From Candidatus Omnitrophota bacterium (GTDB taxonomy: Bacteria; Omnitrophota; Gorgyraeia; 2-02-FULL-51-18): DNA of 45,820 bases. Location of the stretch: assembly GCA_016206825.1 (NCBI GenBank), contig JACQQY010000019.1:1-45820 (forward strand), in the 5' to 3' direction. The translations under genes were made by a program, and so were the position numbers. The notes beneath the pieces were generated by a model. The model had not been told where the DNA came from. It saw nothing but the letters and a program-made list of their open reading frames with translations, and did no database searches. This document shows, piece by piece, positions 2,605-31,232 of this stretch (its first letter is position 1; each line of letters begins with the position of its first letter).

Positions 2605-3837
2605 ATGAGCACGGAACTTTCGGCCATTTTGGACAGCATTCAACGGGAAAAGGGGATCAGCCGCGAGGTGTTGATCGAATCGATCGAGGCGGCCCTTGTT
2701 TCAGCCGCGAAGAAAGTGCTTCACGATAAGGACAAAGAGGTCCAGGTGAAGATGGATCTGGAATCGGGCAGGATCCGTATTTTCTCGGAGGACAAGGAGA
2801 TCGTGTCGAGCGAATTCGGGCGCATCGCCGCTCAGACCGCGAAGCAGGTGATTTTTCAAAAAATCCGGGAAGCGGAGCGGGACGTGATCTTTCAGGAGTT
2901 CTCCGGAAAGATCCACTCTATCGTGAATGGAACGGTTTATCGCTTTGAAAAAGGAGCCCTGTTGGTGGATCTGGGGAAGACCGAGGCCATTCTTCCCCGG
3001 AAGGAGCTGTCGCCGCGGGATAATTACCGGCAGGGGGATACGATCCGGGCGTACGTCCTGGACGTCAATCGCACCGGCAGGGGATCCCAGATCCTTCTTT
3101 CGAGGAGCCATCCGGGTTTTGTGAAACGTCTTTTTGAGCTTGAGGTTCCCGAGGTGGCCGAGGGCACGGTGCAGATGAAATCGGTCTCCCGTGAGGCGGG
3201 CGATCGGACGAAGATAGCCGTTTGGTCGGAGAATGAGAAGATCGACTGCGTGGGCGCCTGCGTGGGCGTGAGGGGATCGAGGGTGAAGGGCGTGGTGAGG
3301 GAGCTCCAGGGGGAAAAGATCGATATCATCCGGTGGAGCGAAAATATTGAGGAGTTCATCCAGGCGGCTTTGAGCCCGGCGACGGTTTCTTCCGTGAAGG
3401 TTTTAAGCCGTGAAGATAAAAAGGTGGAAGTGGTCGTGAGCGACGACCAGTTGTCGCTGGCGATCGGGAAGAACGGACAGAACGTGCGTTTGGCGTCGAA
3501 GCTGACGGGCTGGTCCATCGACATTCGTTCCAAGAAGGAGATCGTGAAAGAAAAATTGGAAGAGATGGCGGCTGAGGCCGGGGCCGAAGAGCCTTCCGCC
3601 GGGATCGAATCGATCGAAGGAGTAGGACCTAAGACGGTCCTTGCTCTGGCCGAGGCAGGGTACCGGTCGCTTGAGGATTTGAAGAAGGCCAAGGAAGAGG
3701 ACTTATTGGCGGTTAAGGGCATCGGCAAAAAGACGCTTGAGAAAATCCTGGCGGCCTTGGGAAAAAGCGCCCAAGCGAGTGACGCAAGCGAAGGGAAAAA
3801 AGAGGAAGCGGCGCCCGAAGAGGGAGAAGCTTCATAA
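2605..3837 (+). CDS. nusA: Transcription termination/antitermination factor NusA
   Basis: 410 aa with an N-terminal domain, S1 and KH regions and a C-terminal helix-hairpin-helix (VKGIGKKTLEKI). Conserved rimP-nusA-infB order. Confidence 0.9.
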   Translation: MSTELSAILDSIQREKGISREVLIESIEAALVSAAKKVLHDKDKEVQVKMDLESGRIRIFSEDKEIVSSEFGRIAAQTAKQVIFQKIREAERDVIFQEFSGKIHSIVNGTVYRFEKGALLVDLGKTEAILPRKELSPRDNYRQGDTIRAYVLDVNRTGRGSQILLSRSHPGFVKRLFELEVPEVAEGTVQMKSVSREAGDRTKIAVWSENEKIDCVGACVGVRGSRVKGVVRELQGEKIDIIRWSENIEEFIQAALSPATVSSVKVLSREDKKVEVVVSDDQLSLAIGKNGQNVRLASKLTGWSIDIRSKKEIVKEKLEEMAAEAGAEEPSAGIESIEGVGPKTVLALAEAGYRSLEDLKKAKEEDLLAVKGIGKKTLEKILAALGKSAQASDASEGKKEEAAPEEGEAS

Positions 3838-16747: not shown

Positions 16748-19700
16748 ATGGACATGTTAAGAAATAAGAAAAATAAGAAAACCATGAAAGCCGGAAGGGC
16801 TATTTTTTCTCTCACTTCCTCATATCTTTTAAAAATTATCGCTGTTTTTCTTGTTGGTTCCCTCACTTTCGAGCAGTTCGCCTTCGCCTTTCCGGAAAAG
16901 AGGGTGGTGGGTAGTGGGTCGTGGGTGGTGGATGGGAAAAAAGAAGAAAAACTTGCAGGTTTTCGTCTGCCCGAATCGATCGCTTCCGTAGAAGATTCTT
17001 ATTTTCCTTCACCCACCACCCACAACCCACCACCCACGAGCCTGGTTTACCTCCTCCAAGACCCCCATACCAATTTCTCCGGGCAAATAAACTTAGCCAA
17101 AACCATTGATTGGGTTGTGGGTAGTGGGTCGTGGATTGTGGATAAAGAAAAAGCCCCAAAAGGTTTCACCCGCCACCCTTTCTACGTCTTCTTAGAAGCA
17201 GGCCAAGGCAACCACACCCTATCTTTCCTAAAAAAATACGCCTCCAAAGAAAAAACAAAAGAAATCGCTGAAAACTTCTTAAGGCAAGGTAAACTCCATG
17301 GAAGTGAATACCTCAATCTTACCTCAGACTACGACGTCACTCTCTGGGGAGTGGAGAATCTCCCGCTTTATTTTAAAGCTCTGGAAAGCTACAAGAAGAC
17401 AGCCTCCCAGAGAAACAAATTCCAAAGCTACCTAACCCAAATAGAATCCGCAATCAACGCTCTAAAACCAAGAATCTACAACCCTTCCGCCTATACCCTT
17501 GATAAGCAAAAAGACAAGTACGAAAAAGGAGAGTTGTCTCTGGCGGAATACTTTGAAGTTCTTTCCAATAGCTCAGAACACACCAAAACCTTCCCTCACC
17601 TTAAACTTCTAAACAAACTAAAGAAACTGGAAGACTCCATCGATTTCAACAAAGCCCGGGAAGAAGAACAAAAAGCCATCCACTCCCTTTCCATCCAAGA
17701 CCAAAAAGAATTAAAAGACCTCGCCCAATCCACCATGAAGCCTCTACAACGGCTTAACTCCAAAGAAGACCAAGCCTTCTTCTTTCTCGTGGAGGAAAAA
17801 CTAAATTCCAGACTTCCAGCGTACCCCCATCTTTCAAGTTACTTCCATTACCTAAAACTCTCAAAGAAACTCAAAGCCAACAACCTCTTAAAAGAACTAA
17901 AAGCCCTTGAAGCCCAGGCCTTTGATTCCTTGCTCATTAGCCAGGATGAAAAGACCCTCTTTCGTTCTTCCAAGACGCTGTCACTTCTCAAGAAGCTCTT
18001 TAACTTTCAACTGACTCCGGAAGAATGGCAAGAGTACCAGAAGCTTAAAGAAGAATGGATTCAAATCCCCCCCGCCCCCTTTCAAATAAAAAGGGGGTTG
18101 CTCTTTAGCTCTTTTTCTTTAAGTAAAAGAAAGCCCTTACCCCCTTTTCCTTTCAAAGGGGGCAGGGGGGATTTTATCACCGCCCTCACAGGCTTCCTCA
18201 ACAAGAAAATCATGGATTTTAAGGATTATTACAGGGAAACCGTGTTTCTTGAACCCGGCTTCGAAAAAATCGAGAAAGAAGCGGAAGCCTTCTATGACCT
18301 CACCTTCCAAAGAGACCAGGCTTTCATTCAAAACATGCTCCACAAACTCTCTCAAAGCTCTCAAATCCCCCCTGCCCCCTTTGAAGGGAAAAGGGGGTTG
18401 GTCGGGTTGGTTGAACCCCAGCGAACCTCACCCCCTTTTCTTCTTAAAGGGGGCAGGGGGGATTTAAACCCCTCCACCCACCACCCTGTTTTCCTCATGA
18501 CCGGAGGTTTTCATACTCCCAATCTCAAGAAACTCTTAAAAGAAAAAGGAATCTCCTACGTCGTCATCACTCCCCAAGTCTTCCACGAAACCAACCAAAA
18601 GCGCTACGAGAAGCTTCTCTTAAGCCGGGACCTTTCTTCGAAGCCCTTCACCCACGCCATTCCCCTTGGCCTGACACGTCCTTCTTACATCGGCGTTGAT
18701 CTTTTGCTGTACAAAGGAGATCTAGCCCATGGTTTTGCCAATACCGGGGAAGAGCTAAACTCAAAAGAAGAAGAAAGAGCGATCCTCGAAGAAATGAAAC
18801 GCCGCCTTGGAGGAAGAGACCCCCAAGTGGCCGAGCAAGGTTCTGTTCGTCCCACGGGGACGGGAGCGAGGCTGGCTTTGGAAGATCAAAAAATTCAAGT
18901 TTCAAGCTCTGGCCCTAAGGATGCAAGAATTGACCCAAAAGCTGGCAGGTTGACTCTTGCCAAAACTTTTATCAATTTTCTAAAGGCTTACTTTATTGTT
19001 GGGCTGGTTATTTTTTTCTGCTCCTGTAATTTGGGGCATCAAGATAAGAATGTTCAAAAGAACGCCTTGTCTCTCGCCGGAGAAACAAACATTCCCAAAG
19101 ACTTAGAATCTCTAAAACCCTTCTTGGAGCATCAAAATGACGATGTTCGGTCTGACGCCTGGCTTTTCGCCGGAGGAACAAACCTTTTCAAAAACTTGGA
19201 ATCTCTGAAACCATTGTTAGAGCATAAGGATGCGAATATTCGATCAGAAGCCTGGTTTCTTGCCAGAGAAAAAAACTTTTTCAAAGACTTGGAATCTCTA
19301 AAACCCTTCTTGGAGCATCAAAATGTCGGTGTTCAGGTTAGAGCCTGGTCTCTCGCCAAAGAAACAAACCTTTTCAAAGACTTAGAATCTCTAAAACCCT
19401 TGTTGGAGCATCAAGATAGCTATGTTCAGTCCACAGCCTGGTCTCTCGCCCGAGAAACAAACCTTTTCAAAGACTCGGAATCTCTAAAACCCTTCTTGGA
19501 ACATCAAAATGGCTATGTTCAGTTTAGAGCCTGCTCTTTCGCTCGAGAAACAAACCTTTTTAAAGACTTAGAATCTCTAAAACCCTTGTTGGAGTATCAA
19601 AATAGCTATGTTCAGTCCACAGCCTGGTCTCTCGCCAAAGAAACAAACCTTTTTAAAGATTTGGAATCTCTAAAGCCCTTCTTGAAACATCAAAATAACG

Positions 19701-22700
19701 ATGTTCGGTGTAAAGCCTGGTCTCTCGTCCGAGAAACAAACCTTTTCAAAGATTTGGAATCTCTAAAGCCCTTTTTATACGATAAAGGCAGGATAGTTTA
19801 TAAAGATGCGGTTTACTGTTTATCTGAATGTAAACTCTTTGAGAAAGAAAAAGACCTGAGCCCTTATTTAAAAGATACAAACCACCTAGAAATTGCTTGT
19901 GAGGCCTTAAAAGTTCTTATTGAAAGAAAAGAGTTTTCTTTGGACCCTTACGAAAACCTCCTCCGAGCCATTTCTATTGCCGAATACGATGCTGGGCATG
20001 GTTCCTTTGTCAATAAACCTAACAGTGAACTTTTTACGGAATTATACTCCCAATTTATTTCCAGGTTAAACAATCACTATGCTCAAAATAAGCTTACCCC
20101 TCTCCAAGAACTCGAAGATATCGGACTGCCCGTCCTTCACACACTTTCTTACTACAAGGAATACCTTAAAACCCTCCAAGAAGAAGACCGGCTTCTTTTT
20201 ACCAGAAAAGTTGCCGATCTCATCGTGGAGCAAAGAACGGCTCATCAAGATAAAATAATGATTGGAAGCGGTATGAAAGTCATTGTAGCGGCCCATGGAG
20301 AGCTTGGAGAAGGAGACTTGAGATTTGCGGATGCGAAGTTTATGAAGTTTCTTAAACAAATCACCGGTTTGGAAACTATCCCCGTTTTTAGAGGCTCCGA
20401 GGAAGACGTTAAGACCACCCAAGAAAAAAACAAATACCTCAAAGAACTGGAAGAGCTTTCAAGACAAAAAAAAGAATGTGTAATCATTGATCTTGGCCAT
20501 GGAGGCAAAGAGCATTTTTGGTTTTCCGGTGGACAGATAGAGAGTGAAGAGTCGGCCTCTCCTTATCATCCATTGGCCGTGAGTTTTAGGGAATATGCCG
20601 AAGCCTTTGTGAAGGGGCAGTCCCAAGAAAAAGAAATAGATCTTTCACACATCGCTATCATTCAGTCCGCTTGTTATCAGTATGATCTTGTTGAGAGGAT
20701 GTTCCAAGAGATTCTAAAGGTCACCAAGGAAGAGAAAAAATCCGTCAAATCACTTCCATTTGTTATGACACTAGCCAATAAAAACAGATTTGGTTTGTCA
20801 AATAAGCCAGGTACTTATACCTCAGAGCCTATTTTCAATGCCATTTATTCTCTTCGATTAAGGCATGGAATTCCTGTTCGTTTAAAGCACCTCTATCAAA
20901 TAGATCAAATGATTCGAGGAGAGGGTGGGCAAAACCCGGCTATTTTTATACCGATCGACCCACTCAAAGTCCAAGAGAAATTAGGGCTTCCCAAGGAAGT
21001 GGAAATAAAGCCGTTTCTTGAAATCGGCGCAAGATTAGCCCAACCCGGATCCCGCCCCGAGGAACTCACAGAAGTTTCTGCACAAACCCAAACCGGACGG
21101 GGTCCCGAAAAGGCGAAAGGGGACACGTTAGCCAAGGGGTCAAGTCTAGACAATAGACAAAGCGGTGTTAAGGTGCCGGAGTTGGGGGGCATGCGGTCAG
21201 GAGGAGATTTGACCCCTTCCGCAGGGACCGGCCTCTTCTCTAGTGAGAGTGCCGGTGGCGGTAGTATTGCTCTACCTTCATCGCCACGTAAAAGCCGACG
21301 AAGGTTAGAAGAATCACCGCTGAAAAGAATATTAGCGACTTTTCATCCACTTTTCTTTTCCTCCTCTGGTTGGAGTATGAATCCTGATAAAATCAAGCCG
21401 GCAAATATGACACCCAATATTATCACCCATACGGTAACACATCCATTGAGTGAAATCAAACCAAGCATGTGGACTGGCAATAAGGAGAAGGTTTCTACCG
21501 GCGCGAGGCTGGCGGGGCGGGTGCCGGGGTATTTTAAGAATCCGGACTTTCCTGAGTTCCGGGATTGGCTGCTTTCTTCGGATTCGCCGCTGACTGAGAG
21601 AGAGAAGGAGTTTTTGAAGATCCGTTATTGGTGGGGGGACGCCGGGACGGTTCAATCGTTAAAAGAGGTGATCTCAAAAAAAGAAATTCGTTCCAGACTT
21701 GGCTTGGGAAGGTGGGGAATAGCAAGGCTTTCCGCTCATTTGCGGCGGAAGATAAAAGAGCTTTACCGCCTGCGCCATGCACAAAAAGGATTTTATCCTT
21801 CAAACGAAGGGGAAACGGCCGCCGGCGTCAACTTTTTGCAGAGCTCTGGTTCAAGACCGGCAAAGGTGAACCACTCCAAGAATGCCGGGGCGAGGCTGGG
21901 GGAGAAAGAAAGTCAGGTTTCAGGGGCTGACCCCTTGATCGAACCCTCTTTATTAAAAGCGTGGTGGTTTGGGCGGGCTCATCGGTATGCGGCGGCGATG
22001 GGGGTTCCCGAGAAGAAAGCGTGGGAGGTGATCGACCGCGTTTTGGAGAGGTCGTCGTGGTTTGCCTGGAAGCGCGTTTGGCGAAAGGTGTGGATGGAAG
22101 AGGCCCTGAAAGAAAGCGAAGACATTATCTTGAAAGCGAACATGATTTACACCGCAAAAAGCTTTGTTTCAAGAGAAACTTCTTTTACCAATGAGGAAAA
22201 GGAAATATTCAAAGAAGCTCATGAACGGTATTTTCGTCTGAAAAACGGCGGGAAAGCCCGGATAGAACATGACGTCGAAATCCCTTCGAAAAATTTTGAT
22301 TATCCAATCCCGGCGGACTTCCTTCTTCCTCCTAACGCTTCAGGCTCGCATCCGGTTCCGGCGGTCATTCTCGTGCATGGGATGACTCACACGCGGTTTG
22401 AACCGGATCTTAATCCCTTGGTGAGGCGATTGCTGGAGAAAGGGATCGCCGTTTTGCGCGTCGAGCTTCCTTCCCATGGGGACAACCAAAATCGATTCAA
22501 AAAACCAGATGATCTCGATTGGATGGTGAAAGACTCGCTCGATTATCTTAAGAAAGATCCAAGAATCAAATCAGCGGCGATAGGCATCGCGGGTTTTAGT
22601 TTTGGAGCTTACGTGGTATTGAGATCGATTTTGGATGAGAAGATCGCTCCTTATTTGCGCGGTTTTGCGGCCATAGCGCCTCCCGCGATCCGCACGCTTA

Positions 22701-25700
22701 CTTCGTTTGTCCATCTGGTCGTCATTTTGCGCCCGATGAAATCGCAATTGATGAGAGTTTTTGGGGAGCGCTTTTCTTGGCCGCTGCACTCTAAGATTTC
22801 GAAGCTGGCGTTAAATGAAAATAGACTGCTGGAGCTGACCCAGGATACGCCGAGTTTGGAAAAGATCGCCGTGGTGTCGATGGGAAGCGACAGAGTGATT
22901 CACGATGCTGACATTAAAATTCTCTTTGAGGTTTTTGGAAAAGGACCGTCCCAGTATCGATTTTTTAAAAAGGCCTCCCATAACCTTATTGGCCAAGACA
23001 GGCAAGAAGCCGACGCGTTCATTGCCGACCATTTTGAGAAAGCCTTGGGATCAAATGGCGCGAGGTTGGGGGTGAAAGAAAGTGTCAAAAGTCAACGACT
23101 GACCCCAGAACCAAAAGAGGAAAAAAAGAAAGAAGCCGGTGCCCGGCTGGCAATTAATCAGCTTCTTATGTCAGCGGCTAAGGAAGATGTCTATGACAAA
23201 GCGGAAAGAGCGTTTCAGCTTTATCAACAAACGCCCCAGGGCAAACCATCGTTAACATCTGATGACAGAATTAGTTTGGAAACTCTGACCATTCTTCTGC
23301 TTAAAGCTTCACACGCCCAAGCAGGAGAACAGTCTATGTGGGCGCGGTTCTTTTGCCAAATAGATTCTGTTCGAAGAGCATGGCAAGAGCAGCACTTTCC
23401 AGGTGTTATCGAATGGCTGCAAAATTTCTCGGGGGATTCGGTTGTGGCTCAGGCACTCACAAGGTTTGGAACACAGACAAGGCTATCCGATCAGTCTCTT
23501 CCTGCCAAGGTGTCAGAAATTGTATTAGCCGATACATCCGGAGAAGGCAAAGATCTCATCGCCATCCCTACGGTCCAAGACGCATCAAAAACGAAAGAGT
23601 TTATCATGATTTTGAAACCACCTACATCATTTAATCCGGAAACCATTATTGAAATTGTGAAAAGGCTCATTTATTTCGGATACCACGTCGTAGGAATCAG
23701 AGTTTATTCGGGAGAACATTTTGCCGCGCATCCTGAAATCATTGGAAGCCAATACATGGAAGCTTGGGAAGGCTGTCAAAATGGAATTCAAAAAGCGGAA
23801 GAATGGGCCGAGATCAGAAGAATCTACGACACGGATGAGTTTGAAGCGACATTCGGTGAGCGTTACAGTGATCAAATGGTAATTCCAGCCGCTGAATTAG
23901 GAAAACGCTATGGATTTTCCAACGAAGAAATTACGGCTCTATGGGAAAGAGGAAGACGAGAAGCTTTATTTCATAATGGCCGCGCCACAGGCTTAAATAA
24001 GGTAGGCTCAGGGCGAAGCGTTTTTCCGGTCAAAGATCCACGAATCAACAGTGGCAGACCCATCATCATGGTTAATGGCTATGTGCCCAGTTTATTGAAA
24101 CTTTTCCAGGGGCCTGATGCCAGGACAGTGGTTTTTCTGATAAGGAATAGGGAGGATGTTCAGTTCCCTATGTCATGGGAATCTCTTCGCAAACAATTGC
24201 TTGGAAATGAAAATGATCCAAGCGCCAACCCTGCCGGCAGTATACGAAGAGATGCATGGACGGGAAATTTGCCGGTCAGACTTCAAGGCGTCTTGAACGG
24301 ACAAAAAAATGTGGCCCACCTCAGTTCGGGTCCGCTCGAAGGCTTGCGAGAAGCTCACATCATGATGGGGCGTGCCATTCAAGATGCGCCCTTTGGTCAA
24401 CAACTTCTTGCGGCAGGTTATCCAGAATCCCAAATCAAGTATCTCATGGGAAACCCAAAAGTGAGGTATTTGAATAAAGCAACCGGAATGTATGCTGTGG
24501 AATCACTTTTTCGATTGACGGAGTATCGAGAACCCAAAGAAGCTCTAGCAATCATCCTCGAATATTTTCCGCCGTATCGCGAATCAAATCCAGATTTAGC
24601 TTCAAGCGTTCCGTTTGACGAGTTTCTGGAAATACAACAAGCCTACCAGGAAGGAAGTTTGTCCGTGCGAACTAACCGCGTACAGGCGAATGTCGTCCAG
24701 ACATCCAGCGTCGAGCCAATCTACTTTCCTGGAATACCCGAAGATGAGATGAGGCGTCTCAATGAGACAGGCGTTGCCGGATTTCAGGCAGGAGAAGCGG
24801 CGCTTATTGTTCCCGGAGGCGGCACAGGAGGGCGTTATGGTGGTTACCATCTTCCGGAAAGTCATCCTGACCGCCAGAAGGTGTTGGCAAAAGCGCTTGA
24901 GGCAGCAAATGGCCTGCGAAGTCCCTTAGAAGTCAGAGCGGCGCACGTCCTGTGGTGGTCTCGTCATCATCAAGCAAAAATTCCGATTTTAATCATGGGA
25001 AATGAATCGAACCTTCCAGCCATAAATGACGCGCTGGAAGAAAATGACTATTACGGCCTTAATCCGAAACAAGTCGACGCCTATCAGCAAAACGGTATTT
25101 ACAGAATCAATCCTATGGCTAATGATTTATCCGGCCAGTCTGATGCCGCGCTGATTTTAGCCTCAAATGGAGAACCTGGTGGAATCTTTCGGGACGATGA
25201 GGGTCATGTCAGCGCTAAGCCTGCGGGTCACGTAGAAATTATTGCTCAGGCCGTCTTAAACCGCCGTCTCCTGAAACTGGCTCGACAAGGCGTCAAAGTG
25301 CTTGTAACCGCAAATGGGGATGATATGAGATTCCTCTTGGATCCTGCAAAGATTGCCTATTTCATGGAAAGTCCTGAGCAAATGATGGCTGTCCTAGCCT
25401 TAAAAGATGTGACTTATGCCATTCAAGTCTCAGGTCAAAAACATCGTTTGATTGTGCGAGGCCAAAAAGTCGTGCAATCAAGCTTGCCGAAGGAATTTCA
25501 TATCGAGATAGATGGAAACCAAGCACTGAAAATCACTCAAGACGGCAATCTCGTGGATATAGCCATTGAAAGTAAAAAAGTGGAAAAAGGCGGATCCCTG
25601 GTGGACTTGAAAGGTACTGATGAAATCCGGAGGCCTGTGATTCTCGAGGGGCCGGCGTTTCCAGACGAGGCAGACCAAGGTCAATTTCCGTACTTCAACA

Positions 25701-27217
25701 CCAATCAGTTGTATTTCAAAGTTGATGCGCTTCTTCAGTTTTTTGGTATCAGCAATTTAGATGAGTACGAAAGGATGCCACAAAAAGAACTGGCTCATCG
25801 AGTCAGGACGGCTTTATCCCAATTACCTCTTTATGTCGAAATAAAAGATGTCATTACTTCCGGAGAAGATACAAAGGAGCCTCAAACACGCAAAGCAGCC
25901 CAAGTTGTCAGGCTTATAGGAGATTTCAGCCGTGTTTTCAAGACTCGTTACATTACAATTGATCGAGATGGCGAAGAAGGCGTAGGAGGATATGGAGCGC
26001 TCAAAGAAAAACAAGATACCACCGCCGCTTCGCATTGGCTCGAGGAAACCAACAACAAACAGAGAATATTTTTATTCGACCCAACTCCGGGAAAAAGTGA
26101 ATTTAATCCTACGCCGGTTGTTGCTCTTACAATAACTACAACTACAAGCGCTTCCAGTTCGCCTTACCCTCACAAAGATGACGTCAAGGAAGGACTTGAG
26201 CCCTTTGCGAACAATCAATCCAAAAATCCTGTCGTTTTAAACCAAGGCTCCCCCATCGAACAAAAAGACGAGCTCATCTTCGCTTTGAACGTCTACGACA
26301 ATACACGCAAAGAAGGTTACTTCGCGCTTGCCCGAAAACCGGAAGGGACGCCCGATATTCTTGGAATTGAGTTTAATAAAGAAAAGAATACCGTCATCGT
26401 TCATTTTAGCGGCCAAAAGAAAGTCGAAGTTAAAAATTACAGAGCCATTCTTCAGAGAAAAAGGACAGCCCGGCATTATGAGAAGGGAAGTCTTGTTTTA
26501 TCGAGAAAAGAGCTGATTCTCTCGGATATCGCTTTTGAGCTTAAAGAAGAGACGCTCGCCGTCGAAGAAAAGGCCAAGGGTCTCATCACCAACTCCCCTA
26601 AACTCTTGAAACTCAAGCTTCCCGGATTTATGAATGAAAACACCAAGACCACCGATGCCCTCTTTGTCGACTGGCTTATTCACGCCGCCCATAAGGCCAA
26701 GAGAGACAACGCGCTTCTTCTTTTGGAAGAAGGAAGCAGTTTCCGGATGGCGGAGATTCTGAAGAGGGCCTCCAAACTCTATCCGACAGAAAGATTTGTC
26801 TATTCCAGTGAACAAGAATTGCCCGAATCCCACAAAAATGCCAAGAGCGTCACGCTAACAGCCTTCAATCCTGAAGAGGCCCCCCACTTAGAAGAAAACC
26901 AGCTTTACCTCATCTCCCAAACCCTTGAAAAGGGCGCCATGCATAACCTGACGGCTCTTATTCAGACAGCTCTCGTTGAAGCGGAGGTGGGCCTTGAGGG
27001 AATGAGGGCAGACAACCCTCAATTTGACGGATTCAGAAATGTTTATGAAGCCCTGGGCGTGAAGATAGGGGATGACATCAACGGCTTTATCCAATTCACC
27101 AAAGGCATCGGCTTAAACCCACAGAAGATGGAACAGTGGGCCATCCCTTTTCACCGTGTCGATGAAATGCTGAGAGCTTATGCTCTGGGCGCCCGCATGG
27201 CTGAGCAGTCGGCGTAA
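16748..27217 (+). CDS. Giant multidomain protein (3,489 aa), hypothetical; signal-peptide-bearing modular protein, possibly a polyprotein
   Basis: Single stop-free frame of 10,470 nt. N-terminal basic plus hydrophobic segment ending AFA|FP. Recognisable modules are listed as separate 'other' features. Seven G-A-R-[LM]-[AG] junction motifs. No obvious SD; the ATG lies 11 nt after the tyrS stop. Confidence 0.8.
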   Translation: MDMLRNKKNKKTMKAGRAIFSLTSSYLLKIIAVFLVGSLTFEQFAFAFPEKRVVGSGSWVVDGKKEEKLAGFRLPESIASVEDSYFPSPTTHNPPPTSLVYLLQDPHTNFSGQINLAKTIDWVVGSGSWIVDKEKAPKGFTRHPFYVFLEAGQGNHTLSFLKKYASKEKTKEIAENFLRQGKLHGSEYLNLTSDYDVTLWGVENLPLYFKALESYKKTASQRNKFQSYLTQIESAINALKPRIYNPSAYTLDKQKDKYEKGELSLAEYFEVLSNSSEHTKTFPHLKLLNKLKKLEDSIDFNKAREEEQKAIHSLSIQDQKELKDLAQSTMKPLQRLNSKEDQAFFFLVEEKLNSRLPAYPHLSSYFHYLKLSKKLKANNLLKELKALEAQAFDSLLISQDEKTLFRSSKTLSLLKKLFNFQLTPEEWQEYQKLKEEWIQIPPAPFQIKRGLLFSSFSLSKRKPLPPFPFKGGRGDFITALTGFLNKKIMDFKDYYRETVFLEPGFEKIEKEAEAFYDLTFQRDQAFIQNMLHKLSQSSQIPPAPFEGKRGLVGLVEPQRTSPPFLLKGGRGDLNPSTHHPVFLMTGGFHTPNLKKLLKEKGISYVVITPQVFHETNQKRYEKLLLSRDLSSKPFTHAIPLGLTRPSYIGVDLLLYKGDLAHGFANTGEELNSKEEERAILEEMKRRLGGRDPQVAEQGSVRPTGTGARLALEDQKIQVSSSGPKDARIDPKAGRLTLAKTFINFLKAYFIVGLVIFFCSCNLGHQDKNVQKNALSLAGETNIPKDLESLKPFLEHQNDDVRSDAWLFAGGTNLFKNLESLKPLLEHKDANIRSEAWFLAREKNFFKDLESLKPFLEHQNVGVQVRAWSLAKETNLFKDLESLKPLLEHQDSYVQSTAWSLARETNLFKDSESLKPFLEHQNGYVQFRACSFARETNLFKDLESLKPLLEYQNSYVQSTAWSLAKETNLFKDLESLKPFLKHQNNDVRCKAWSLVRETNLFKDLESLKPFLYDKGRIVYKDAVYCLSECKLFEKEKDLSPYLKDTNHLEIACEALKVLIERKEFSLDPYENLLRAISIAEYDAGHGSFVNKPNSELFTELYSQFISRLNNHYAQNKLTPLQELEDIGLPVLHTLSYYKEYLKTLQEEDRLLFTRKVADLIVEQRTAHQDKIMIGSGMKVIVAAHGELGEGDLRFADAKFMKFLKQITGLETIPVFRGSEEDVKTTQEKNKYLKELEELSRQKKECVIIDLGHGGKEHFWFSGGQIESEESASPYHPLAVSFREYAEAFVKGQSQEKEIDLSHIAIIQSACYQYDLVERMFQEILKVTKEEKKSVKSLPFVMTLANKNRFGLSNKPGTYTSEPIFNAIYSLRLRHGIPVRLKHLYQIDQMIRGEGGQNPAIFIPIDPLKVQEKLGLPKEVEIKPFLEIGARLAQPGSRPEELTEVSAQTQTGRGPEKAKGDTLAKGSSLDNRQSGVKVPELGGMRSGGDLTPSAGTGLFSSESAGGGSIALPSSPRKSRRRLEESPLKRILATFHPLFFSSSGWSMNPDKIKPANMTPNIITHTVTHPLSEIKPSMWTGNKEKVSTGARLAGRVPGYFKNPDFPEFRDWLLSSDSPLTEREKEFLKIRYWWGDAGTVQSLKEVISKKEIRSRLGLGRWGIARLSAHLRRKIKELYRLRHAQKGFYPSNEGETAAGVNFLQSSGSRPAKVNHSKNAGARLGEKESQVSGADPLIEPSLLKAWWFGRAHRYAAAMGVPEKKAWEVIDRVLERSSWFAWKRVWRKVWMEEALKESEDIILKANMIYTAKSFVSRETSFTNEEKEIFKEAHERYFRLKNGGKARIEHDVEIPSKNFDYPIPADFLLPPNASGSHPVPAVILVHGMTHTRFEPDLNPLVRRLLEKGIAVLRVELPSHGDNQNRFKKPDDLDWMVKDSLDYLKKDPRIKSAAIGIAGFSFGAYVVLRSILDEKIAPYLRGFAAIAPPAIRTLTSFVHLVVILRPMKSQLMRVFGERFSWPLHSKISKLALNENRLLELTQDTPSLEKIAVVSMGSDRVIHDADIKILFEVFGKGPSQYRFFKKASHNLIGQDRQEADAFIADHFEKALGSNGARLGVKESVKSQRLTPEPKEEKKKEAGARLAINQLLMSAAKEDVYDKAERAFQLYQQTPQGKPSLTSDDRISLETLTILLLKASHAQAGEQSMWARFFCQIDSVRRAWQEQHFPGVIEWLQNFSGDSVVAQALTRFGTQTRLSDQSLPAKVSEIVLADTSGEGKDLIAIPTVQDASKTKEFIMILKPPTSFNPETIIEIVKRLIYFGYHVVGIRVYSGEHFAAHPEIIGSQYMEAWEGCQNGIQKAEEWAEIRRIYDTDEFEATFGERYSDQMVIPAAELGKRYGFSNEEITALWERGRREALFHNGRATGLNKVGSGRSVFPVKDPRINSGRPIIMVNGYVPSLLKLFQGPDARTVVFLIRNREDVQFPMSWESLRKQLLGNENDPSANPAGSIRRDAWTGNLPVRLQGVLNGQKNVAHLSSGPLEGLREAHIMMGRAIQDAPFGQQLLAAGYPESQIKYLMGNPKVRYLNKATGMYAVESLFRLTEYREPKEALAIILEYFPPYRESNPDLASSVPFDEFLEIQQAYQEGSLSVRTNRVQANVVQTSSVEPIYFPGIPEDEMRRLNETGVAGFQAGEAALIVPGGGTGGRYGGYHLPESHPDRQKVLAKALEAANGLRSPLEVRAAHVLWWSRHHQAKIPILIMGNESNLPAINDALEENDYYGLNPKQVDAYQQNGIYRINPMANDLSGQSDAALILASNGEPGGIFRDDEGHVSAKPAGHVEIIAQAVLNRRLLKLARQGVKVLVTANGDDMRFLLDPAKIAYFMESPEQMMAVLALKDVTYAIQVSGQKHRLIVRGQKVVQSSLPKEFHIEIDGNQALKITQDGNLVDIAIESKKVEKGGSLVDLKGTDEIRRPVILEGPAFPDEADQGQFPYFNTNQLYFKVDALLQFFGISNLDEYERMPQKELAHRVRTALSQLPLYVEIKDVITSGEDTKEPQTRKAAQVVRLIGDFSRVFKTRYITIDRDGEEGVGGYGALKEKQDTTAASHWLEETNNKQRIFLFDPTPGKSEFNPTPVVALTITTTTSASSSPYPHKDDVKEGLEPFANNQSKNPVVLNQGSPIEQKDELIFALNVYDNTRKEGYFALARKPEGTPDILGIEFNKEKNTVIVHFSGQKKVEVKNYRAILQRKRTARHYEKGSLVLSRKELILSDIAFELKEETLAVEEKAKGLITNSPKLLKLKLPGFMNENTKTTDALFVDWLIHAAHKAKRDNALLLLEEGSSFRMAEILKRASKLYPTERFVYSSEQELPESHKNAKSVTLTAFNPEEAPHLEENQLYLISQTLEKGAMHNLTALIQTALVEAEVGLEGMRADNPQFDGFRNVYEALGVKIGDDINGFIQFTKGIGLNPQKMEQWAIPFHRVDEMLRAYALGARMAEQSA
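16902..17143. repeat. G-tract / C-tract inverted repeat set inside the 5' end of the giant ORF
   Basis: GGGTGGTGGGTAGTGGGTCGTGGGTGGTGGATGGG (16902-16935). Its approximate reverse complement is CACCCACCACCCACAACCCACCACCCACGA (about 17010-17039). A second G-rich copy lies at 17112-17143. They are translated as VVGSGSWVVD / PTTHNPPPT / VVGSGSWIVD. Confidence 0.75.
18063..18174. repeat. Family-A palindromic element inserted in-frame in the giant ORF (copy 1)
   Basis: AAATCCCCCCCGCCCCCTTT ... AAAGGGGGCAGGGGGGATTT. Read through as IPPAPFQIKRGLLFSSFSLSKRKPLPPFPFKGGRGDF. Confidence 0.85.
18363..18465. repeat. Family-A palindromic element inserted in-frame in the giant ORF (copy 2)
   Basis: AAATCCCCCCTGCCCCCTTT ... 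AAAGGGGGCAGGGGGGATTT. Read through in the same frame as IPPAPFEGKRGLVGLVEPQRTSPPFLLKGGRGDL. Confidence 0.85.
19088..19831 (+). repeat. Eight tandem 93-nt (31-aa) HEAT-like coding repeats
   Basis: Units start at 19088, 19181, 19274, 19367, 19460, 19553, 19646 and 19739. Consensus NLFKDLESLKPFLEHQNxxVxxxAWSLAxET. A partial unit lies before 19088 and degenerate units after 19831. Confidence 0.85.
20260..20720 (+). other. Caspase-fold (clan CD)-like cysteine peptidase module of the giant protein
   Basis: Hydrophobic strand plus His-Gly (CVIIDLGHGG, His1251 at 20498-20500), and hydrophobic strand plus Cys (IAIIQSACYQ, Cys1309 at 20672-20674), 58 aa apart. An earlier strand reads KVIVAAHGE. Motif-level evidence only. 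Confidence 0.45.
21515..21886 (+). other. Sigma-70 region-4/LuxR-like helix-turn-helix module of the giant protein
   Basis: LTEREKEFLKIRYWWG...SLKEV...LGLGRWGIARLSAHLRRKIKELY resembles the L.eRer.vl.lry...s..eIa..lg.s...v......a..kLr pattern. Bounded by GARLA (21500) and GARLG (21887). Confidence 0.35.
22260..23056 (+). other. Alpha/beta-hydrolase module of the giant protein
   Basis: VILVHG strand; nucleophile elbow G-F-S-F-G (Ser1951, 22598-22600); GSDRVI (Asp2048, 22889-22891); ASHNL (His2078, 22979-22981). The order is the canonical Ser-Asp-His. Confidence 0.6.
23594..24400 (+). other. Nucleoside-diphosphate-kinase-like module with a large insertion
   Basis: KEFIMILKP (compare ERTFIMIKPD), LLGNENDPSANPAGSIRRDAW (compare GaTnP..A.pGTIRgDf) and KNVAHLSSGPLEGLREAHIM (compare N.iHGSDS.e.A.rEi; His2524 at 24317-24319). 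The first and last blocks are about 240 aa apart, versus about 105 in canonical NDK. Confidence 0.5.
24690..26050 (+). other. UDP-sugar pyrophosphorylase (UDPGP family)-like nucleotidyltransferase module
   Basis: LIVPGGGTGGRYGG (compare LNGGLGTsMG), AKPAGHVEI, VTANGDD and PYFNTNQLYF (compare FNTNN). Confidence 0.55.
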
Positions 27218-27228
27218 AAAGGGTTGTA

Positions 27229-27250
27229 GGGGCAGGTTCCAAACCTGCCC
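27229..27250. repeat. REP-like GC hairpin immediately after the giant-ORF stop
   Basis: GGGCAGGTT (27230-27238) / AACCTGCCC (27242-27250), 3-nt loop, no T-tract. Same GGGGCAG-type stem as the hairpins at 35584-35638. Confidence 0.7.
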
Positions 27251-27315
27251 AGAGACTGTCAAACCTGATTTGATGGACTCCCGTTTCCGAAGAAGACTTA
27301 CGGAGGAAACCGCCA

Positions 27316-27363
27316 ATGCGAGCTCTCTACGAGCTCTCTACAGCGCTTGACGGAAGGTTGTGA
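27316..27363 (+). CDS. Candidate 15-codon mini-ORF (MRALYELSTALDGRL)
   Basis: ATG 27316 lies 7 nt after a strong SD GGAGGAA (27302-27308). It contains an 11-nt tandem duplication GAGCTCTCTAC x2 (27320-27341). Confidence 0.2.
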   Translation: MRALYELSTALDGRL

Positions 27364-27366
27364 GAA

Positions 27367-27537
27367 ATGATACAGTTTAGGTGTATGAATTTGATATCCG
27401 AAAGAAAGATAGAATTTATTTCTAAGACTATCACGGACTTGGGAAAAGCGATGTTCGCCGTTGGCGTTGCCAGTTACTTTTTTGAGCGGTTCCCATTCGC
27501 TTGGAGAATCGTGATGGGCGGGTTGATGGAAGCCTGA
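27367..27537 (+). CDS. Candidate 56-aa small membrane protein
   Basis: My own translation: MIQFRCMNLISERKIEFISKTITDLGKAMFAVGVASYFFERFPFAWRIVMGGLMEA. One hydrophobic helix. GGAAGG lies 10 nt upstream. Below the ORF-track length cutoff. Confidence 0.3.
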   Translation: MIQFRCMNLISERKIEFISKTITDLGKAMFAVGVASYFFERFPFAWRIVMGGLMEA

Positions 27538-27620
27538 TGGAAATGATCGTTGCGGCAATTGTAGTGTTGCTATTTTCTCTGGCCTATGTTTACTTTGGCC
27601 GGCACCGCCACTCTCACTAA
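27537..27620 (+). CDS. Candidate 27-aa single-TM peptide
   Basis: My own translation: MEMIVAAIVVLLFSLAYVYFGRHRHSH. Its ATG overlaps the TGA of the preceding small ORF (TGATG). Confidence 0.3.
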   Translation: MEMIVAAIVVLLFSLAYVYFGRHRHSH

Positions 27621-27644
27621 CCCCATTGGGATTAGATTCTCTCC

Positions 27645-27730
27645 AAATCCCCCCTGCCCCCTTTTAAATAAAAAGGGGGTTGGTCAAACCCCGCTTCCTT
27701 CAGTAGTAGTTGCTCTTTAGTTCTTTCTCT
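27645..27730. repeat. Family-A palindromic element, truncated (left-half) copy
   Basis: AAATCCCCCCTGCCCCCTTTTAAATAAAAAGGGGGTTGG... plus the internal GTTGCTCTTTAG block. The right terminal repeat is absent. Confidence 0.7.
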
Positions 27731-27772
27731 ATAATGACAAATTGTAAAAATTGTAAAAAGTCGTAAAATATA

Positions 27773-27801
27773 TTGACAATTCTTTTCACGGATGATACCT
27801 T
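27773..27801 (+). promoter_or_regulatory. Candidate promoter upstream of rplM (TTGACA-N17-TACCTT, TGn)
   Basis: TTGACA 27773-27778, spacer ending TGA, TACCTT 27796-27801, in an AT-rich stretch that also holds TATAAT (27730-27735) and the direct repeat ATTGTAAAA x2. It lies very close to the rplM start, so the call is uncertain. Confidence 0.25.
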
Positions 27802-28715: not shown

Positions 28716-28748
28716 GAAGGTGTGAAAAAATTCCTTCGGCCCTTTGTC

Positions 28749-28826
28749 ACCCCCGCAATGTTTAAGCGGGGGTCTTTCACTGAGGGGCCCCTCCACGAGA
28801 GATTCCCGCTAAAACATTGCGGGAAT
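28749..28826. repeat. Composite imperfect palindrome (two inverted hairpins flanking GAGGGGCCCCTC); hairpin 1 is a possible rpsI terminator
   Basis: ACCCCCGC-aatgtttaa-GCGGGGGT (28749-28773). 12-nt palindrome GAGGGGCCCCTC (28782-28793). ATTCCCGC-taaaacatt-GCGGGAAT (28802-28826), which approximates the reverse complement of hairpin 1. Confidence 0.65.
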
Positions 28827-28853
28827 GACAGGAGGCGATTTTTACGCGAGTCG

Positions 28854-31130: not shown

Positions 31131-31232
31131 AGACCCTCCCCCTGATAAGGGGGAGCCGGAGGGGGTTTGGAGCAGGCTTTGTAGACAAACCCAAACCCCC
31201 TCTAACTCCCCCTTGACAGGGGGAGGAAGGTC
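31131..31232. repeat. Palindromic MITE-like element, family B, between argJ and argB
   Basis: Left arm CCCTCCCCCTGATAAGGGGGAGCCGGAGGGGGTTTGG (31134-31170). Right arm CCAAACCCCCTCTAACTCCCCCTTGACAGGGGGAGG (31191-31226). The arms are near-perfect reverse complements, and each also self-pairs. Confidence 0.8.

Follow-up and report, generated by a model that had tools for sequence, protein, structure and literature searches.

Between tyrS and rplM on contig JACQQY010000019.1 of a Candidatus Omnitrophota bacterium (assembly GCA_016206825.1), analysed here over its full 45,820 nucleotides (the window), a single open reading frame (ORF) encodes a protein of 3,489 amino acids (aa) that concatenates unrelated modules. 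This giant ORF is a genuine gene of the modular giant-protein kind of Omnitrophota. We propose that its product is built like a polyprotein, in which a short peptide motif recurring at the module junctions, GAR[LM][AG], would mark sites of processing or recognition, a reading to which we give a probability of roughly 0.55. In its layout, a conserved front, termed Seg A, and a conserved C-terminal module and tail enclose variable cargo units.

Giant Omnitrophota genes were described by West-Roberts et al. (2023; bioRxiv 10.1101/2023.11.21.568195), who asked whether the products are cleaved and who were kept from splitting the proteins for structure prediction by the absence of known cleavage points. 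A preprint of 2026 (10.64898/2026.06.07.730766), with 176 complete Omnitrophota genomes and a survey threshold of at least 10,000 aa, described class 1 “multi-enzyme metabolic clusters” with a signal peptide, transmembrane (TM) topology and HEAT scaffolding. Both preprints point to C39 and S8 peptidase domains, and the text of neither mentions a recurring junction motif, a conserved N-terminal Seg A or a C-terminal tail (10.1101/2023.11.21.568195; 10.64898/2026.06.07.730766). The window ORF is a small representative of the kind described, though not characterised, in these two preprints, contrary to a first-pass annotation of the sequence that knew of no described protein family with this combination of modules. 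The junction motif, its variants, the bookend modules, the match between units and whole proteins, and a motif-flanked unit of TM segment, HEAT repeats and caspase fold are apparently undescribed.

The ORF is real and intact, as the first-pass annotation had stated, and forms one continuous frame on the + strand from the ATG at 16748 to the stop codon at 27215-27217. Within it GAR[LM][AG] occurs seven times, against 0.19 in shuffled sequences, at aa 706, 1427, 1585, 1714, 2104, 2131 and 3481; no further copy was found in the six frames of the window.

16748..27217, + strand, giant ORF, 3,489 aa, from reading of the open frame in the window
18863..18877, + strand, junction motif 1, GARLA (aa 706-710), closing Seg A, from the motif scan
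21026..21040, + strand, junction motif 2, GARLA (aa 1427-1431), adjoining PFLEI, from the motif scan
21500..21514, + strand, junction motif 3, GARLA (aa 1585-1589), from the motif scan
21887..21901, + strand, junction motif 4, GARLG (aa 1714-1718), from the motif scan
23057..23071, + strand, junction motif 5, GARLG (aa 2104-2108), from the motif scan
23138..23152, + strand, junction motif 6, GARLA (aa 2131-2135), from the motif scan
27188..27202, + strand, junction motif 7, GARMA (aa 3481-3485), with only EQSA between it and the stop codon, from the motif scan and the tail consensus

The motifs sit between recognisable modules, and the final copy lies 8 residues before the C-terminus. The codons of the motif vary by site, indicating that the constraint acts on the peptide; on this ground a DNA repeat was rejected as the origin of the motif. 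A compositional origin was also rejected, since shuffles and small-ORF controls remain at the chance level.

Dozens of Omnitrophota MAGs encode related proteins marked by the same motif. Homologues of aa 1-711 were found at 34-42 % identity, the named ones being “Candidatus Omnitrophica”, and a pattern scan for Seg A across one genome per GTDB species returned 68 loci, nearly all in metagenome-assembled genomes (MAGs) labelled Omnitrophota/Omnitrophica or “uncultured Planctomycetia”, with one in Auribacterota. Single MAGs hold at least six paralogues. At most of these loci Seg A heads an ORF of 2,000-4,000 aa or more, and such ORFs often run past the end of the fetched DNA. GAR[LM][AGS] occurs there at 1.46 per 1000 aa in Seg A-led ORFs and at 0.99 in other ORFs with 800 aa or more, as compared with 0.043, the chance expectation, in smaller ORFs. 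The consensus is [GA]-[AS]-R-[LMF]-[AST], often preceded by Ser or Ala, with 5-6 positions conserved and the flanks not. The GAR-type motif likewise separates modules of P0007, P0008 and P0010, which are Seg A homologues; four large ORFs of contig L005 carry GARLA or GARLS, and P0006 carries AARLA. The first motif falls 415-773 aa (mostly 450-610) past the HTN marker of Seg A in 30 of the 32 ORFs listed, and the median motif-to-motif spacing is 244 aa, the size of a domain. BLAST blocks common to the giants cross a motif 62 times, against about 1151 crossings expected, and interior blocks do so 0 times against 9.4 expected (n = 18).

Elsewhere other motifs take its place. K[ST]SSAG occurs in nine copies in three adjacent large ORFs of L002, the contig of P0002, on which no GARLA was found; among giants retrieved by way of the caspase-fold module, [SA]ELR occurs 15 times in P0017 (0.32 expected), R[SA]E[MVI]R 16 times in P0022 (1.4 expected) and also in P0025 and P0037, and [AK]SLG 13 times in P0028 (0.55 expected); ASSA[AV], noted by eye, recurs in P0034 and P0057. 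Arg or Lys is present in most of the variants. When many proteins of a genome share one motif and other lineages have exchanged it entirely, a site read by a genome-encoded partner is what would be expected.

The nature of the units thus bordered was addressed most fully for the 716 aa between motifs 1 and 2, which comprise a TM segment, HEAT repeats and a caspase fold that closes with PFLEI:

18965..19033, + strand, second hydrophobic segment (aa 740-762) with net positive charge before it, from hydropathy
19061..19783, + strand, HEAT-like tandem repeats, 7.7 copies of 93 nt (31 aa), from TRF and Pfam (HEAT_2, E = 9.5e-7)
20045..21025, + strand, clan-CD (caspase/hemoglobinase-fold) peptidase-like domain (aa 1100-1426), from homologues, an AlphaFold2 (AF2) model and Foldseek

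All TM and signal-peptide calls in this study are hydropathy calls. By this measure the second hydrophobic segment is present where it had been annotated, and it looks like the HEAT-caspase unit's own signal anchor. The HEAT-like repeats (repeat family D1), previously counted as eight, are about 80 % identical between copies (TRF). The caspase fold, the boldest call of the first-pass annotation, proved to be the best supported. An exhaustive HMMER search with aa 1030-1720 returned 78 homologues, every one of which aligns to aa about 1100-1430, and in an alignment of 25 sequences H1251-G1252, E1282, C1309 and P1337 are invariant. The AF2 model (predicted local distance difference test, pLDDT, 89.7; predicted template modelling score, pTM, 0.89) is matched by Foldseek, with E values from 1e-5 to 1e-2, to caspase-11, -4, -7 and -9, CED-3, legumain, metacaspase, MALT1 and SAVED-CHAT, the probability being about 1 for caspases, legumain, metacaspase and MALT1. 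H1251-G1252 and C1309 come just after model strands 145-150 and 203-208, as in clan CD. The model confirms a clan-CD caspase fold with a conserved His-Cys dyad for aa 1100-1426, the peptidase activity of which is putative. Members of the family show weak C13 and Raptor_N hints only and no C80 match.

Stand-alone homologues of HEAT repeats plus caspase fold are 606-774 aa long. Among those inspected by eye, most open with a signal of TM-like or Tat-like type and stop 10-18 residues past “LEIG”, a region that corresponds to PFLEI-GARLA in the window. The TM-HEAT-caspase order is also found in P0017, P0019, P0022, P0025 and P0037. In the window, P0017, P0022, P0028 and P0037 the unit is bounded on both sides by the motif type of its host, and in P0025 the host motif stands on its C-terminal side. 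Motif-bounded units therefore match stand-alone homologues in length and ends, indicating that the motifs delimit proteins that are whole elsewhere. A broader rule, that every unit begins with a TM segment of its own, was rejected, as the enrichment is weak (n = 26) and a TM segment after Seg A is not universal.

The chain is closed at either end by conserved elements:

16799..16891, + strand, basic stretch and hydrophobic segment (aa 18-48), signal peptide or signal anchor, from hydropathy and conservation in the alignment
16967..18667, + strand, Seg A core (aa about 74-640), from homologues at 68 loci
26234..27214, + strand, conserved C-terminal module (aa 3163-3489), seen solely at the C-termini of relatives

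The signal-like N-terminus noted at first pass is found by hydropathy, is conserved in alignment A1 and closes with a family-conserved EQxxFA. Seg A, with the motifs QD[AP]HTNxSGQ, EAGxG, WGVE, TGGFHTPN and TPQVxxETNxxRYE, is a conserved N-terminal module of an Omnitrophota paralogous family. The earlier assignment of this region as ChaN/TraB-like had to be abandoned, as profile, Pfam and fold tests gave no support for an enzyme of the TIKI/TraB/ChaN/erythromycin-esterase type: the family profile had 0 matches in the PDB at E up to 10, Pfam found no relevant family in 10 Seg A members, and none of the Foldseek matches of the AF2 model (pLDDT 64) was significant, the best having E = 0.18 and EreC ranking 47th at E = 4.4. 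The GGxH-type motif resemblance to the ChaN/TraB superfamily may serve only as a lead. A divergent Seg A family (IHIQDAHCNYxAQ ... GGFHTENL) was observed in P0019, P0042, P0058 and P0067, with P0066 and P0037 more distant; the giants that it heads terminate in ...[RKT]SL-COOH and not in ...[SA]A-COOH, and simple k-mer counting detected no recurring junction motif in them.

At the other end, the final 390 aa, in which no motif had been recognised, in fact contain a conserved C-terminal module. The last 150-330 aa have homologues at the very C-termini of P0016, L031, L044, L045 and L057. The supposition that a C-terminal module of ~330 aa is universal in the giants was rejected, since jackhmmer finds the module in a subfamily only, and a pattern scan of a metagenome collection with this module returned only a contig already known. 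What is general to the giants is a tail of about 10-30 aa, with the consensus helix, R(-7), x, [VI](-5), x, x, [SA](-2), A(-1). Of the complete ORFs with 1200 aa or more, 26 of 31 have Ala as their last residue, as do 36 of 398 among the smaller ORFs. In form the tail is a degenerate version of the junction motif with 4-8 further residues (for example GARMAEQSA, GARLAIRMAEQSA and SELRVLESA), replaced by [RKT]SL in the lineage with divergent Seg A. The whole arrangement is seen in miniature in P0016, a complete protein of at most 716 aa that consists of a short N-terminus, GARLS, a methyltransferase-like unit, GARLA, the C-terminal module and GARMASQAA.

The remaining cargo of the window protein lies between motif 2 and the C-terminal module:

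21041..21499, + strand, Gly/Ser/Pro-rich segment (aa 1432-1584), from composition
21515..21886, + strand, module D (aa 1590-1713), the “HTH” of the first-pass annotation, motif-bounded
21902..23056, + strand, alpha/beta-hydrolase module (aa 1719-2103), FrsA/Ayg1-like, from Pfam and a PDB profile
23579..24427, + strand, nucleoside diphosphate kinase (NDK)-like domain with a large insert (aa about 2278-2560), from the family profile and an invariant motif
24668..26017, + strand, UDP-sugar pyrophosphorylase-like (UDPGP-like) domain (aa about 2641-3090), from the family profile and a G-rich loop

Most of the original module calls hold, and with them the description of the protein as a concatenation of unrelated modules. 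The alpha/beta hydrolase exceeds the Pfam cut-offs (Abhydrolase_6, 36.1 bits against 26.3; FrsA-like, 27.5 against 22), matches PDB 8qd7 with E = 5e-11 and contains the nucleophile elbow GFSFG at aa 1949-1953, with a candidate Asp in GSDRV (2046-2050) and a candidate His in ASHNL (2076-2080). At 385 aa, this unit has the length of stand-alone FrsA/Ayg1-type enzymes. The UDPGP-like call finds partial support: the window sequence alone scores 12-16.9 bits, under the Pfam cut-off of 22, but the family profile matches solved UAP/UGP structures, which are UDP-sugar pyrophosphorylases, with an E value of about 1e-5, PF01704 is present in the homologues P0001 and P0002, and the G-rich loop PGGGTGGR occupies aa 2689-2696. 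For the NDK-like domain the evidence is divided, as the N-x-x-H-x-S motif is invariant in alignment A2 (NVAHLSS in the window, aa 2521-2527) and the homologue P0003 carries PF00334, but the family profile matches NDK chains weakly and in two parts (E = 0.02-0.1). The NDK-like and UDPGP-like domains (aa 2278-3090) are kept as one unit in P0001 and P0002 at 32-33 % identity. A helix-turn-helix (HTH) identity for module D was not borne out, neither a Pfam match nor a homologue being found, and the disordered Gly/Ser/Pro-rich segment likewise has no homologue and no Pfam match.

Two other settings of these domains were observed. In P0004 (841 aa) and P0005 (1474 aa) the NDK-like domain shares a chain with a TIR domain at the N-terminus and with a MobA-like nucleotidyltransferase (PF12804), an architecture that points to the chemistry of nucleotide signals or defence and not to sugar activation. 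In P0002 (contigs L001-L004, JGI) the NDK-like and UDPGP units are accompanied by a B12-binding radical SAM domain, an HD domain and a cytidylate kinase. The P0002 gene sits between a gene for more than 4,000 aa and one for 1,185 aa, with a small PilZ-domain gene just upstream, and these three large ORFs have K[ST]SSAG in common and tails ending in ...A.

Taken as a polyprotein, the chain would operate as follows. The junction motif would be read by a lineage-encoded factor that co-evolves with it, and the chain would be split at the motifs into separate proteins, or each unit would at least be recognised there. The units would follow their own targeting signals, which would bring Seg A and the HEAT-peptidase unit to membrane or periplasm and the nucleotide-sugar enzymes elsewhere, and the N-terminal module and C-terminal tail would be handling signals. 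More speculatively, the clan-CD unit or a stand-alone paralogue might be the processing enzyme. Several clan-CD families, among them clostripain, gingipains, metacaspases and separase, favour Arg or Lys at P1, and a protease flanked by its own sites is found in viral polyproteins, in MARTX (multifunctional-autoprocessing repeats-in-toxin) toxins and in gingipain precursors. In the window protein a recurrent motif borders autonomous units and the protease-like unit is itself motif-flanked, as in a polyprotein, and from this we infer processing, or at least recognition, at the motifs. Processing or recognition at the junction motifs has slightly better than even odds in our judgement; that the embedded clan-CD unit is the responsible enzyme is unlikely. 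Extended to the long and giant Omnitrophota proteins at large, the proposal that they are true bacterial polyproteins, released at lineage-specific motifs by a co-evolving protease, possibly the widespread TM-HEAT-caspase unit, is a tentative one that we place somewhat below even odds.

Several observations weigh against this proposal. Processing is read throughout from sequence. The block test at interior positions comprises 18 non-independent observations, and the ends of alignment blocks show only a slight enrichment near motifs. In the Seg A giants of one MAG (L047, L052 and L054) no recurring motif could be detected, the variants AASLG and K[ST]SSAG break a simple Arg-P1 rule, and in the window no junction motif separates the UDPGP-like domain from the C-terminal module. 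With respect to the enzyme, the caspase-fold unit was not found within +/- 10 kb at the 68 Seg A loci, so that it is not obligatory for GARLA-type proteins and the idea that it accompanies them in cis was rejected. Among the caspase-fold homologues inspected none is GARLA-type, and no specific pairing of peptidase and motif was seen. The Tat-like or TM signals of the stand-alone homologues suggest a periplasmic enzyme, a poor fit with cleavage of a cytoplasmic precursor.

The main rival is a single uncleaved, membrane-anchored multi-enzyme chain in which the motif would serve the linkers as a structural or docking element, for example as a short linear motif to which the HEAT repeats, Seg A, a chaperone or a secretion component binds, so that the modules are kept organised and not separated. 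Both preprints treat the giants as single chains, without cleavage evidence; the motif also occurs a few residues from the C-terminus, where a cut would separate nothing; HEAT repeats are protein-binding scaffolds; and no dedicated protease was found. It is harder to reconcile with such a chain that the motif-bounded units are complete stand-alone proteins with their own targeting signals. The charges on the N- and C-terminal sides are +6 and 0 for the first hydrophobic segment and +2 and +1 for the second, so that both prefer an N-in orientation, preferences that conflict in a single chain and are natural for separate units. The quick lineage-specific replacement of the motif, together with its uniformity within a genome, also speaks for cleavage, although a co-evolving binding partner fits it as well; cleavage sites of viral polyproteins show the same lineage-specific replacement and within-genome uniformity. 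We consider the uncleaved chain possible but rather doubtful.

The first-pass annotation had likened the protein in concept to modular multi-effector toxins, and a more specific rival is a secreted MARTX-like toxin of predatory or parasitic Omnitrophota, in which the whole chain would be exported and passed into prey, where nucleotides occur and where the caspase fold would free the enzymes. The signal-like N-terminus, the clan-CD domain embedded between its own junction motifs, the nucleotide-using cargo (joined in P0004, through the NDK-like domain, to a TIR domain) and the prey-directed roles proposed for Omnitrophota giants in the literature are all compatible with the likeness. Membership of the MARTX type fails, as no RTX or other delivery repeats were found by Pfam and no secretion-system genes in the window. 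The radical-SAM/B12 and cytidylate-kinase units of relatives are unlikely Sec cargo, and the cargo here (hydrolase, NDK-like and UDP-sugar pyrophosphorylase-like) looks biosynthetic and not toxic; a toxin is quite improbable. Still less probable, to the point of being nearly negligible, is an artefact in which ordinary genes were joined by sequencing errors or the contig is chimeric. The sequence is of metagenome type, the G+C content at third codon positions (GC3) of the ORF is far from that of its flanks, half of a repeat element at 27645-27696 could in principle mark an assembly join, and the ORF and its neighbours have no exact copy on record, exact-sequence look-ups of the giant, of TyrS (first residue V or M) and of RpsI having matched no record. 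Against this, an open frame of 3,489 sense codons is not credible as a product of chance at 46 % GC, and the same layout from N-module to C-module, in ORFs of 2,000-4,000 aa or more, recurs in dozens of independent assemblies. The ORF starts with a module that heads dozens of related proteins and ends with one found only at C-termini, which speaks against ORFs that were fused or hold hidden frameshifts. Copies of a genome-specific palindromic element lie both in the flank (17-122) and inside the ORF, linking the two to one genome, and the last 310 aa are reproduced at 99 % identity in an independent Logan assembly of SRR12113385.

The locus bears on the origin of the gene. It is preceded by cmk, plsC, rpsA and tyrS and followed by rplM, rpsI, argC, argJ, argB and argD (NCBIfam). 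The ATG follows the end of tyrS (16736) by 11 nt, and, as first described, no GGAGG-like (Shine-Dalgarno-like) sequence lies in between; nor were promoter-like or terminator-like sites found there on the + strand. GC3 is 0.662 +/- 0.032 in 16 flanking genes (minimum 0.594) and 0.39-0.565 in the units of the giant ORF, which fall into two classes: HEAT, caspase-fold and NDK-UDPGP units at about 0.39-0.43, and Seg A, module D, the hydrolase and the C-terminal module at 0.51-0.565. Related giants differ from their own flanks by a mean GC of -0.006. Neither tyrS nor rplM was found near any of the 68 related loci, and the closest relative adjoins gap-pgk-tpi-secG, which lies downstream of it. The suggestion that the ORF was inserted between tyrS and rplM is supported by these observations, and the best view of the gene is that of a mosaic insertion, acquired laterally, whose parts look to have differing histories. 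PADLOC gave no match in the window, and an esterase was the sole PHROGs match.

Palindromic elements of MITE/REP-like type (miniature inverted-repeat transposable element/repetitive extragenic palindromic), about 106 nt long with 36-nt terminal inverted repeats (AAATCCCCCCTRCCCCCTTT ... AAAGGGGGCAGGGGGGATTT), occur both outside and inside the gene:

17-122, palindromic element, flanking copy
18063..18174, no strand assigned, palindromic element, in-frame copy 1, encoding IPPAPF...KGGRGD
18363..18465, no strand assigned, palindromic element, in-frame copy 2
27645-27696, palindromic element, half-copy between the giant ORF and rplM

The terminal inverted repeat has 7 matches in the window, against 0.01 expected, and none in 76 other loci. 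The two full in-frame copies encode IPPAPF..KRG...PPFxxKGGRGD loops, which are insertions relative to all homologues and have low AF2 confidence; in this they resemble the in-frame Rickettsia palindromic elements. The presence of the element in the flanks and within the ORF implies that the ORF has been resident in the genome for some time and that there is no chimeric join. A second palindrome (GGGTGGTGGGTAGTGGGTCGTGGGTGGTGGA and its complement) was noted at 16896-17048 and 17112-17153, within the 5' part of the ORF, where it encodes duplicated VVGSGSW[VI]VD peptides and a PTTHNPPPT stretch, again insertions relative to homologues, and it is probably the cause of a strong local C-skew at 17-18 kb. 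Odd peptides of a like kind (GSWVV, SRLTT) occur in the homologue P0010, and Seg A genes may often host such elements.

The 574 nt that separate the giant ORF from the start of rplM (27218-27791) contain two small hydrophobic ORFs, at 27367-27537 (56 aa) and 27501-27620 (39 aa, MEMIVAAIVVLLFSLAYVYFGRHRHSH), with 3 promoter-like matches against 0.7 expected and 5 terminator-like matches against 0.9. Further downstream, G/C-rich palindromes with 43-nt and 36-nt arms at 28745-28830 (after rpsI) and 31135-31226 (after argJ) may be REP-like elements or terminators.

In practical terms, the junction motif provides a concrete map of unit boundaries that can be used for metaproteome searches and for cutting giant ORFs into foldable units, and co-variation of motif and protease could be sought in the roughly 200 complete genomes now available. 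If processing were refuted, the motif would remain an unexplained conserved linear signal in a very strange class of proteins. Should the wider polyprotein reading hold, it would supply the cleavage map that has long been wanting for proteins as large as 147,000 aa, together with an operon-like expression strategy that has no described parallel in cellular prokaryotes.

Among known systems, the Omnitrophota giants are the nearest. They resemble the window protein in having homologues almost only in Omnitrophota MAGs, in the many unrelated enzyme domains that tile one chain with signal peptide or TM segments and HEAT scaffolding, in sugar- and nucleotide-metabolism content, in sequence-unique cargo and in the open question of cleavage. 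The window protein differs in its size of 3,489 aa, under the 10,000-aa survey threshold, and in having a clan-CD domain in place of C39 or S8. MARTX and large clostridial toxins contain an internal cysteine protease domain (MEROPS C80, clan CD). Like the window protein they carry several unrelated effector enzymes and an internal caspase-fold protease in one chain, and they are cut at short linker sites between effectors, just as the window motifs lie between units. In contrast to MARTX, the window has no RTX repeats, no C80 match and no nearby type I secretion or acyltransferase genes (Pfam, NCBIfam), its motif has Arg before Leu, and the sites in its relatives are far more numerous (up to 18 in 4,000 aa).

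The RgpA/Kgp/HagA gingipain polyproteins of Porphyromonas gingivalis (clan CD, family C25) also combine a clan-CD peptidase with other domains in one bacterial chain, and are cut after Arg or Lys at domain borders by an enzyme of the same class. Unlike them, the window protein has no C25 domain, no haemagglutinin domains and no C-terminal domain of the type IX secretion system, its cargo consists of enzymes and not adhesins, and motifs of the window type are longer and lineage-specific. Polyproteins of the viral 3C/3CL or NIa type share short motifs that are uniform in each genome and differ by lineage, sites at the borders of mature proteins and a protease flanked by its own sites, whereas the window ORF is a cellular bacterial chromosomal gene with another protease fold, the cargo of which is shuffled among paralogues within a genome. 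Processing, if confirmed, would make these giants a bacterial counterpart to viral polyprotein expression, with cargo shuffled between paralogues.

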